Part shown: in pieces, positions 28,147 to 29,191 of the stretch
Layout: every line of letters begins with the position of its first letter
Numbering within the stretch: position 1 is the first letter of the stretch
IMG/VR virus record: IMGVR_UViG_2778261246_000004
Coordinates: 1-44,468 of that record
DNA: 44,468 bases
Strand: one strand, 5' to 3'
DNA from: a virus
Lineage: Duplodnaviria; Heunggongvirae; Uroviricota; Caudoviricetes
Notes under the pieces: model-generated
What the model saw: the letters and a program-made list of their open reading frames with translations, nothing else
Databases searched by the model: none
What the model was told of the DNA's origin: nothing
Made by a program: the position numbers and the translations under genes

Positions 28147-28228
28147 TGGACCGTCACCGGGGACTCGAACCCCGCACCACAAAACAACAATACGTGTTAT
28201 GCACTCTTACCCGATGAGTTAGTGACGG
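28147..28228 (-). tRNA. tRNA-like element A (atypical; anticodon not assignable by eye)
   Basis: 7-bp acceptor stem CCGTCAC/GTGACGG, U8, A14, G18G19, canonical T-arm CGGGG-TTCGAGT-CCCCG and 3' CCA, but no clean anticodon arm; 82 nt. Confidence 0.35.
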
Positions 28229-28282
28229 TTTTTTGTTCTGTGGGAATCCAGCCTGACGACAGAATTACTGGAACACCTTGCA

Positions 28283-28318
28283 AAAAAAGCCAGCCACCAG
28301 AGACTGGCTGGCAAATTA
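28283..28318 (-). terminator. Rho-independent terminator-like hairpin
   Basis: Minus-strand RNA GCCAGCCA-loop-UGGCUGGC followed by U7. Confidence 0.45.
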
Positions 28319-28487
28319 CAAAGTTTAAATGATTCATCATACAATCGTCGTTACAGGGGAATCCTGCGGTGCAGCAAGATACAGAAATGTAAGCAAGCTA
28401 ACAATAAGCAAGAACAGCATCTTCGGAATTAGTTATATTTTTAACGATACAATGCTTATTTAGCGTACAACTCTGCCATTTACCGAA

Positions 28488-28513
28488 AAAAAACCGCCTG
28501 TTAAGGCGGTGGT
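28488..28513 (-). terminator. Rho-independent terminator-like hairpin
   Basis: Minus-strand RNA CCGCC-UUAACA-GGCGG followed by U8. Confidence 0.45.
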
Positions 28514-28881
28514 CAAATCAGTAAGTGCTGAAGAGTATTATTATAATATAGGTGAGGTGTCGGGTGCCTCCCGAAATACCTGACATTCCATCAGATACTG
28601 TAGTTTCCCCGCTAAACAACCACTTAAACCACCCCCGCACATGGAGCCCACCTCATTTTGTGATGTTAACAACATCGGGATAGTGCATAATCAGCCCCTG
28701 CATGGAAATATCAAAAAAAATCCCACCAATAATGCACTATTCCGATAGCATCAAAAAACACAGCACCGAAATCATAACTGGTCTCCGTTATAATTCGGGA
28801 GCGCGATAAGGGATATACGAGACCTTTTCCCGCGAGAAAAAAAACGCCAGTGCTGAAAAACCTGTACCTCATTTGTTTTGC

Positions 28882-28956
28882 TGGAGCGGGCAGCGGGAAT
28901 CGAACCCGCATCATCAGCTTGGAAGGCTGAAGTAATAGCCATTATACGATGCCCGC
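28882..28956 (-). tRNA. tRNA-Gly (anticodon UCC)
   Basis: 75-nt cloverleaf GCGGGCA...CCTTCCAAG...GGTTCGATTCCCGCTGCCCGCTCCA; close to E. coli glyT-type tRNA. Confidence 0.85.
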
Positions 28957-28959
28957 ATA

Positions 28960-29035
28960 TGGTGCCGACTACCGGAATCGAACTGGTGACCTACTGATTA
29001 CAAGTCAGTTGCTCTACCTACTGAGCTAAGTCGGC
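28960..29035 (-). tRNA. tRNA-Thr (anticodon UGU)
   Basis: Acceptor GCCGACT/AGTCGGC, D-arm GCTC-AGTAGGTA-GAGC, anticodon arm ACTGA-CTTGTAA-TCAGT, T-loop TTCGATT, 3' ACCA. Confidence 0.75.
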
Positions 29036-29037
29036 AC

Positions 29038-29114
29038 TGGACCGCCACCGGGGACTCGAACCTCGCACACTCAACTTAAAGGGTTGACGCTCTTTCCTGA
29101 TGAGCTAGTGGCGG
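29038..29114 (-). tRNA. tRNA-like element B (divergent; anticodon loop CCUUUAA, possibly UUU)
   Basis: Acceptor CCGCCAC/GTGGCGG, U8, A14, GG in D-loop, perfect 5-bp anticodon stem TCAAC/GTTGA, T-loop TTCGAGT, CCA; position 33 is C not U. Confidence 0.45.
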
Positions 29115-29115
29115 T

Positions 29116-29191
29116 TGGTGGCCCTTGCTGGATTTGAACCAGCGACCTGGCGATTATGAGTCGCTCGCTCTCACCACTGAGCTAAAGGGCC
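29116..29191 (-). tRNA. tRNA with anticodon CAU, closest to tRNA-Ile2 (lysidine type, ileX/ileZ-like)
   Basis: GGCCCTTTAGCTCAGTGGT.AGAGC...GACTCATAATCGC...GGTTCAAATCCAGCAAGGGCCACCA; near-identical to E. coli ileX by memory. Confidence 0.8.

Follow-up and report, generated by a model that had tools for sequence, protein, structure and literature searches.

The tRNA cluster of the prophage

The DNA analysed here is the IMG/VR virus record IMGVR_UViG_2778261246_000004, 44,468 nucleotides (nt) in length and called the window below. It is a lambdoid prophage of Escherichia coli, with integrase, excisionase and DicF at its early end. Our subject is a cluster of transfer RNA (tRNA) genes in this prophage, and in particular two tRNA-like elements of the cluster, named A and B. 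The stretch was searched with ARAGORN and with the Rfam tRNA model (RF00005, gathering score 29 bits). The five tRNA-like genes that ARAGORN found in the window share the minus strand and are exactly the five elements of an initial annotation. A tRNA-Ile2 gene with anticodon CAU (29116..29191) is followed after 1 nt by B (29038..29114), after 2 nt by tRNA-Thr(UGU) (28960..29035) and after 3 nt by tRNA-Gly(UCC) (28882..28956), while A (28147..28228) lies 653 nt beyond the Gly gene. Four genes stand head-to-tail, not three with spacers of 1-2 nt as first described. The Rfam model gave 73.8 bits for the Thr gene, 72.5 for the CAU gene, 66.0 for the Gly gene and 44.4 for B, which has the lowest score of the four genes that pass the threshold. 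The CAU gene carries its anticodon on an Ile2-type body (ileX, ileY, ileZ) and not on that of a Met tRNA, according to both ARAGORN and annotation; near-identical copies are annotated as tRNA-Ile by NCBI, and the gene is named ileZ in records of Shiga toxin (Stx) phages. The calls of Gly-UCC, Thr-UGU and Ile2-CAU as canonical tRNAs were upheld by ARAGORN, Rfam and the NCBI and Stx annotation.

The cluster is located between the late antiterminator gene Q (30985-31344) and the lysis genes, and on its 3' side there is a TerB-family gene, followed by holins and endolysin. This is the slot of ileZ-argN-argO in Stx phages, so that the likeness to this module, already suggested in the initial annotation, is borne out. 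The module of Stx and other lambdoid phages shares with the present cluster its position, with Q on one side and the lysis or toxin genes on the other, the promoter sequence and the first gene, ileZ, and B has the acceptor stem, D arm, T arm, U73 and encoded CCA of argN. It differs in that the second gene is here UUU with C33, whereas argN has UCG with U33, that argO is replaced by copies of the host genes thrU and glyT, and that a solitary paralogue, A, is added 653 nt downstream. The Ile-Lys-Thr-Gly set occupies the same slot in isolated coliphages and in many E. coli genomes, and, taken as a whole, the cluster belongs to a known kind of prophage module. A literature search on ileZ and argN found nothing. 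A different gene set, for an Asn(GUU) and a Thr(UGU) tRNA, is present downstream of Q in SfI, Sf6, ST64T and P21, in the same late slot, and is likened to our cluster by position only; codon bias does not account for the Asn(GUU) gene of these lambdoid and P22-like phages (PMC3636060).

Element B, an argN-type gene with a lysine anticodon

B was called Lys(UUU) by ARAGORN. It is built on an argN-type scaffold, defined by C1-G72, U73, the T loop UUCGAGU and an encoded CCA, which is also present in A. Both elements have a 7-base-pair (bp) acceptor stem, a 4-bp D stem with G18-G19 and a 5-bp T stem with a T-Psi-C loop. Their ends are alike, as first reported: 5' CCG(U/C)CAC and 3' GGUUCGAGUCCCCGGUG(A/G)CGGUCCA. 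With argN itself, B has in common the acceptor stem including C1-G72, the D arm including A20, the T arm, U73 and the encoded CCA. The anticodon stem changed from UCAGC/GCUGG in argN to UCAAC/GUUGA in B, with pairing preserved. The anticodon loop is CUUCGAA in argN, which has the Arg anticodon UCG, CCUUUAA in B and CUUUUAA in host tRNA-Lys(UUU). Thus the loop of B is the host Lys loop with the single change U33C, and the C33 of the initial annotation is confirmed. From this comparison, B is a paralogue of the Stx-phage argN and not argN itself. The loop has 7 nt, with C33 in place of U33; the purine A37 is present, and U34-U36 and U36-A37-A38 are retained. U36-A37-A38 is the determinant of N6-threonylcarbamoyladenosine (t6A), and bacterial TsaBD does not contact U33 in a base-specific way (PMC13276492).

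B was found in 793 of 5,426 complete E. coli genomes, and its exact copies are annotated as tRNA-Lys by NCBI, whose pipeline uses tRNAscan-SE. It is also present in Shigella flexneri and in isolated phages. In IMG/VR, the B scaffold has C33 in at least 119 contigs and U33 only once (locus L013); the U33 alleles were searched with a tight pattern, as a looser one matched mostly unrelated hairpins. Among 128 copies of B, 72 are identical to the one described here, 24 have U8C together with two wobble changes and 14 have a deletion in the D stem. Its place 1 nt downstream of ileZ is within the 1-8 nt range of argN-type genes. B is therefore a common, annotated and little-studied tRNA-Lys-like gene with one precise oddity.

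Element A, a tRNA-like RNA with a different central segment

A is a tRNA-like RNA of 82 nt. Its acceptor, D arm and T arm are of the argN type and its CCA is encoded, but a central segment replaces the normal anticodon arm, so that 28 nt instead of 22 separate the D and T arms. Several pairs changed on both sides between B and A: C4-G69 to U4-A69, G10-C25 to A10-U25 and U27-A43 to A27-U43. A has no match to the Rfam tRNA model even at E<=10, and no known RNA family was found above the Rfam thresholds; the best match, tmRNA (transfer-messenger RNA, of the same Rfam clan), is below threshold at 19.4 bits. Two folds of the central segment are conceivable. One has a 5-bp stem AUAAC/GUUGU, a 7-nt loop ACGUAUU (C33, U37) and a 9-nt variable region; it calls for one more base behind the D stem and suits the A class and locus L144 only. 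The other is a longer hairpin (alignment columns 32-53) that is common to a prophage class annotated as 'tRNA-OTHER' (C3), with three pairs changed on both sides, on the basis of two or three lineages only. Thermodynamic folding does not choose between them. The statement that A has no clean anticodon stem thus needs qualification: a 5-bp stem can form, but only with an extra base and a 9-nt variable region and in competition with the longer hairpin. The ARAGORN isotypes are unstable as well, Val(AAC) or Thr(CGU) for A and Tyr(AUA) or Met(CAU) for its G-to-A variants, and A is without a defined anticodon.

Full-length copies of A, taken as matches over 80% or more of a 201-nt query with A at its centre, are present in 16 of the 5,426 E. 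coli genomes and are annotated in none. No match was found in 50,697 phage records. A wider search for the clade of A gave 9 loci in a genome scan, three of which are chance matches in Actinobacteria, and one locus in a metagenome scan. A is invariably located 606-653 nt after the Gly(UCC) gene and does not follow the argN-type placement 1-8 nt after ileZ. It is a rare, unannotated tRNA-like RNA. The 'tRNA-OTHER' genes (C3) resemble it in their argN-type body, their length of 81-82 nt and the 3' strand GUUGU, but they stand after ileZ and are often decayed, whereas A is solitary, unannotated and nearly invariant in its central segment.

Just upstream of A there is a conserved block resembling a small RNA (sRNA), at 28289..28455 on the minus strand, with a strong terminator at 28289-28312. 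This block folds better than shuffled sequence (z=-2.8), and its Rfam matches, VqmR and Qrr, are sub-threshold only. A possible -10 box, TATAAC, is present near its start. In the alignment, 7 of 82 columns vary in A, 9/60 in the spacer upstream of it, 3/49 in the 49 nt downstream, 22/167 in the sRNA-like block and 238/413 further upstream. A test of the conservation of A (p=3e-13) is inflated by one haplotype with non-homologous flanks, and these corrected counts are used instead. The sRNA-like block, the spacer, A and the terminator together form one conserved block of ~360 nt. In the most divergent haplotype, where 40 nt of the spacer are deleted, A differs at 5/82 positions (6%) and the sRNA-like block at 33/168 (20%; p=0.005). 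The U/G-rich central stretch of A (positions 37-54) is invariant in 12 of 12 haplotypes. These comparisons are moderate evidence that A, its odd central part included, is kept.

Relatives on the same body

Other anticodon arms occur on the same body elsewhere. Class C3 has 11-nt loops and L144 has the loop ACCAGAU. The 6-nt anticodon loops CGGGAU, CAGGAU and UUUGAG were found in prophages of Salmonella diarizonae, Citrobacter and Edwardsiella (L129 2762-2835, L137 2-75, L135 1226-1302 and L238 7014-7087), and ARAGORN gave no anticodon for these. The element in L238 lies 1 nt after a diverged ileZ. The acceptor, D and T helices of the 81-82-nt classes keep 95-100% pairing, and there are pairs in which both sides have changed. 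The search pattern behind most members of this wider family prescribes the 3' 25 nt, which makes conservation of that part a given of the sample; the 5' half, which the search did not fix, is likewise nearly identical. A stable body with a changing arm would fit selection for ribonuclease P (RNase P) cleavage only, a decoy role, or repeated loss of decoding.

In the commonest 'tRNA-OTHER' (C3) form the T loop is replaced (GGGGGCGGGTCCCC) and the 11-nt loop region is kept; it is represented by L166 and about 25 other IMG/VR loci. Other IMG/VR loci carry a B that has lost its anticodon arm, or a fusion of argN and argO. The acceptor pair 3-70 is G3-C70 in most members of the family. A G3-U70 acceptor pair, the main identity mark for alanyl-tRNA synthetase, was seen in an argN allele of an Stx2 phage (Stx2a_F349, L002 2001-2077) and in a 76-nt variant of B (L016).

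The ordinary tRNA genes and codon supply

The Thr gene is identical to thrU of E. coli K-12 (76/76), and the Gly gene matches K-12 glyT at 74 of 75 positions; the sole difference is at gene position 26, T in the prophage and C in glyT. Both are copies of host genes, neither phage-specific tRNAs nor nuclease-resistant variants. In the host operon thrU-tyrU-glyT-thrT, tyrU stands between the Thr and Gly genes, while the prophage pair is only 3 nt apart. The pair reads as a clean capture, or deletion, of part of this operon. Relative to the K-12 locus (L128 401-760), it corresponds to thrU and glyT minus tyrU and 116 nt of spacer. A counter-defence role of the Thr and Gly genes against PARIS or P2-OLD was considered and rejected, as the Thr gene does not differ from host thrU, and host tRNA-ThrU is no safeguard against P2-OLD (PMC12445682).

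Together with ileZ, the thrU and glyT copies would add gene dosage for the minor A-ending codons AUA, ACA and GGA. Per 1000 codons, AUA occurs 5.4-8.1 times in the prophage, 7.3 in 25 K-12 genes and about 4.4 genome-wide, and GGA 14.5-15.6, 12.9 and about 8 times, respectively. For ACA, the values are 14.7-16.4 in the prophage and 10.7 in the K-12 genes, with 7.1 genome-wide in Shigella (PMC3636060). The enrichment is about 2-fold against the genome-wide values and only 1.1-1.5 fold against the 25 K-12 genes. Added dosage for minor codons fits these ordinary genes better than counter-defence does, with an enrichment whose size varies with the reference. The supply of rare-codon tRNAs, named initially as the role of the Stx module, does not extend to B: AAA is the major Lys codon of the host, in which the median number of tRNA-Lys genes per genome is six, so rare-codon supply cannot explain this gene. 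AAA is found 35.6-38.6 times per 1000 codons in the prophage and 29.8 times in the 25 K-12 genes (1.1-1.3 fold).

Possible roles of B and A

The first description left A and B together as divergent tRNAs, pseudo-tRNAs or regulatory RNAs, a choice too broad to fail. The evidence separates them: judged from their sequences, B resembles a decoder in which one loop base deviates, and A resembles a non-decoder. The expectation that neither would receive a confident standard isotype stands for A, which is never annotated, and falls for B, a tRNA-Lys in hundreds of NCBI-annotated genomes.

Our best reading of B is that it would substitute for, or compete with, host tRNA-Lys and would escape PrrC, RloC and PARIS, the nucleases by which the host tRNA is cut. 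B would be the commonest allele of an argN-body tRNA whose loop was converted to the host tRNA-Lys(UUU) loop save for U33C. It would be processed and modified normally, with t6A37 and a modified wobble U34, and charged with lysine, and when host tRNA-Lys is attacked it may work as an uncut replacement or as an uncuttable competitor. Host tRNA-Lys(UUU) is a target of RloC, as it is of PrrC. PrrC cuts it 5' of U34, just after nucleotide 33 (PMC3025547), and C33 of B is the base immediately 5' of this bond. For PrrC, what is known is the cut site only, and an effect of C33 on its cleavage is a conjecture. The main targets of PARIS are Lys, Thr and Asn tRNAs; host tRNA-Lys is the main target of its AriB nuclease, which cuts at C40|A41 and requires U39, A41 and U16 (PMC12409363). 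B has G39, U40, U41 and C16, so the AriB determinants are not present, and its foreign body would remove the sites that AriB requires. Phage tRNA-Lys genes do rescue cells from PARIS AriB and from PrrC170 (PMC11464382, PMC11555353, PMC12445682), and in a library of 245 coliphage tRNAs most members with the right anticodon suppressed (PMC12445682).

B resembles the nuclease-evading tRNA-Lys(UUU) genes of T5, active against PARIS AriB, and of SP15 and others, active against PrrC170, in its UUU anticodon, in its differences from the host at the AriB positions 39, 41 and 16, and in being a Lys gene hardly justified by codon usage (PMC12409363, PMC11464382, PMC11555353). Unlike these genes of virulent phages, B is found in a temperate lambdoid prophage, has an Arg-tRNA body, C33 and U73, and is known from sequence alone; its neighbour Thr(UGU) is identical to that of the host and not a resistant variant (PMC12445682). 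The phages for which tRNA-based counter-defence has been demonstrated so far are large and virulent, T5 being an example. If it held for B, there would be a temperate-phage version carried by about one E. coli genome in seven and of very simple design, the host tRNA-Lys loop with one base changed beside the PrrC cut site, and an elongator tRNA with C33 would be able to function in E. coli.

A is probably a processed, non-decoding tRNA-like RNA, as its sequence suggests. It is a further argN-body paralogue in which the tRNA body was kept and the anticodon arm rebuilt. RNase P would cut it out of the late transcript, giving a stable tRNA-like RNA that carries no amino acid and does not decode, and its role may be that of a decoy for a tRNA-binding factor or of a processing point. 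With A, the late operon of some prophages gains a tRNA-shaped RNA that is not annotated. The two parts combined, a nuclease-evading Lys tRNA or competitor (B) and a non-decoding processed RNA (A), are the account that we tentatively prefer, at somewhat less than even chances.

Several observations weigh against this account. U33 is nearly universal and supports the U-turn required for ribosome binding (PMC13276492), so that C33 may be no more than a defect. Cleavage by the yeast gamma-toxin, a different and unrelated anticodon nuclease, was unaffected by U33C (PMC2275089), so an altered position 33 does not necessarily stop a nuclease. The T stem of B contains one A51-C63 mismatch, and ~30% of the B copies are altered at normally invariant positions (U8C in 24/128, the D-stem deletion in 14/128), many of these variants being without NCBI annotation. 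Lys identity uses A73 and B carries U73. The conservation of A does not exceed that of its near flanks (p=0.36). As the Thr gene is identical to that of the host and ThrU is unprotective against P2-OLD, the module as a whole is not a counter-defence cassette. Finally, in a sample anchored on ileZ, and independent of the element's own sequence, decayed copies are frequent in the slot after ileZ, argN copies with mismatches included. Such frequent decay of the family elsewhere keeps a pseudogene reading a serious rival. On that reading, which we rate somewhat below our own, B, A or both are non-decoding argN relics hitch-hiking with successful prophage modules, and the body of B is kept only for the RNase P cut that frees the adjacent real tRNAs across spacers of 1-2 nt. 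It is favoured by the decay in the slot, by the common and unannotated U8C and D-stem-deletion alleles, and by C33, U73 and the T-stem mismatch of B, all departures from standard tRNA rules; a conserved body with a free anticodon arm is also what selection for RNase P alone predicts. However, drift does not predict that the loop of B equals the host Lys loop at 6/7 positions, with all modification and anticodon-recognition elements included, and the intact allele is in the majority (72/128), most stem substitutions in the variants preserving pairing. Nor does the release of neighbours apply to A, which is solitary at 653 nt from any tRNA and has an almost invariant odd central segment. If A and B were both relics, hundreds of 'tRNA-Lys' annotations in E. 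coli would be doubtful. An ordinary supplementary tRNA-Lys that boosts AAA/AAG decoding in the phage late genes would agree with the NCBI annotation of B and with the higher AAA frequency of the prophage. It is an improbable explanation: AAA is already the major Lys codon of a host with about six tRNA-Lys genes, its enrichment is slight, and the near-fixation of C33 is left unexplained.

The relatives of A and B could also be taken together as a counter-defence RNA family, with one body and rewritten anticodon arms, instead of decaying tRNAs. B would then be a Lys tRNA resistant through U33C at the PrrC cut site, with a body unrecognisable to PARIS, and A and its relatives with 6-nt and 11-nt loops in Salmonella, Citrobacter and Edwardsiella would act, uncharged, as decoys for toxins or immune nucleases directed at tRNAs; we regard this extension as unlikely. 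For A itself, joint action with the upstream sRNA-like block seems improbable. Here A would be an RNase P cut site that sets RNA ends in a read-through late transcript, or its U/G-rich segment would base-pair with a target RNA. The common ~360-nt conserved block, the folding of the sRNA-like block (z=-2.8) and the invariance of positions 37-54 of A would agree with this, but there is no site complementary to the U/G-rich segment elsewhere in the window with up to 3 mismatches and no Rfam family match, and haplotype L007 has lost 40 nt of the spacer and A's U-tract terminator yet keeps A. Least probable of all is that A decodes with an unusual arm, for example by reading Tyr codons through GUA or AUA, with C33 and a variable region of 9 nt, in replacement of the tyrU missing from the captured thrU-glyT pair. 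The stem AUAAC/GUUGU with its loop ACGUAUU is present, the G-to-A variants are read as Tyr(AUA) by ARAGORN, both GUA and AUA read Tyr codons, and the order of the host operon is thrU-tyrU-glyT. In the stem register, though, position 37 is U and not a purine, position 33 is C and one more base must follow the D stem; the Rfam tRNA model does not accept A, the isotypes called by ARAGORN number four, and sister classes have loops of 6 and 11 nt. Tyr identity, moreover, uses A73, and A carries U73.

Transcription signals and neighbouring features

A sigma-70-type promoter, TTGCAA-17-TATTAT (29201..29229, minus strand, 9/12 matches in a promoter scan), lies directly upstream of the first tRNA gene, and the same promoter sequence precedes ileZ in an Stx2 phage. 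Upstream of it, the terminator scan detected an intrinsic terminator with an 8-bp stem and a U tract (29316..29336, minus strand), which is likely to be the tR' of the short leader RNA of the late promoter. The terminator-ended short region at 29313-29389 (minus strand) has a weak isrK-like Rfam match (16.8 bits, below threshold) and may be the pR'-tR' leader RNA, comparable to the lambda 6S RNA; pR' would then be set apart from Q by an inserted cassette. Two more intrinsic terminators were detected by the same scan on the minus strand, one inside the non-coding spacer of ~650 nt (28493..28510) and one ~27 nt past A (28101..28120), within the 49 nt where 3 columns vary. A terminator after A is the usual arrangement for the final tRNA of an operon. 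The cluster is a tRNA module of a kind found in many lambdoid E. coli prophages, placed between Q/pR'-tR' and the lysis genes with a promoter of its own, and from its position it is probably also part of the Q-dependent late transcript, read through from pR'.

The inserted cassette (29424-30971, plus strand) lies on the opposite strand between Q and the tRNA cluster, contains three open reading frames (303, 81 and 128 amino acids, aa) and is missing from the close relatives of the prophage. The 303-aa protein has no Pfam domain and matches the PADLOC candidate defence family PDC-S42 (E=3e-53). As a partner of B this candidate is unsupported, since the close relatives have B without the cassette, and no tRNA nuclease was recognised elsewhere in the prophage. 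The DicF sRNA gene (39313-39364, plus strand; Rfam 76.7 bits against a threshold of 48) is expected in a lambdoid immunity region. Next to the excisionase and integrase genes, an 823-aa protein (40008-42479, plus strand), with no Pfam match in its N-terminal 640 aa, carries a C-terminal Rv2179c-like 3'-5' exoribonuclease domain (E=3e-66).

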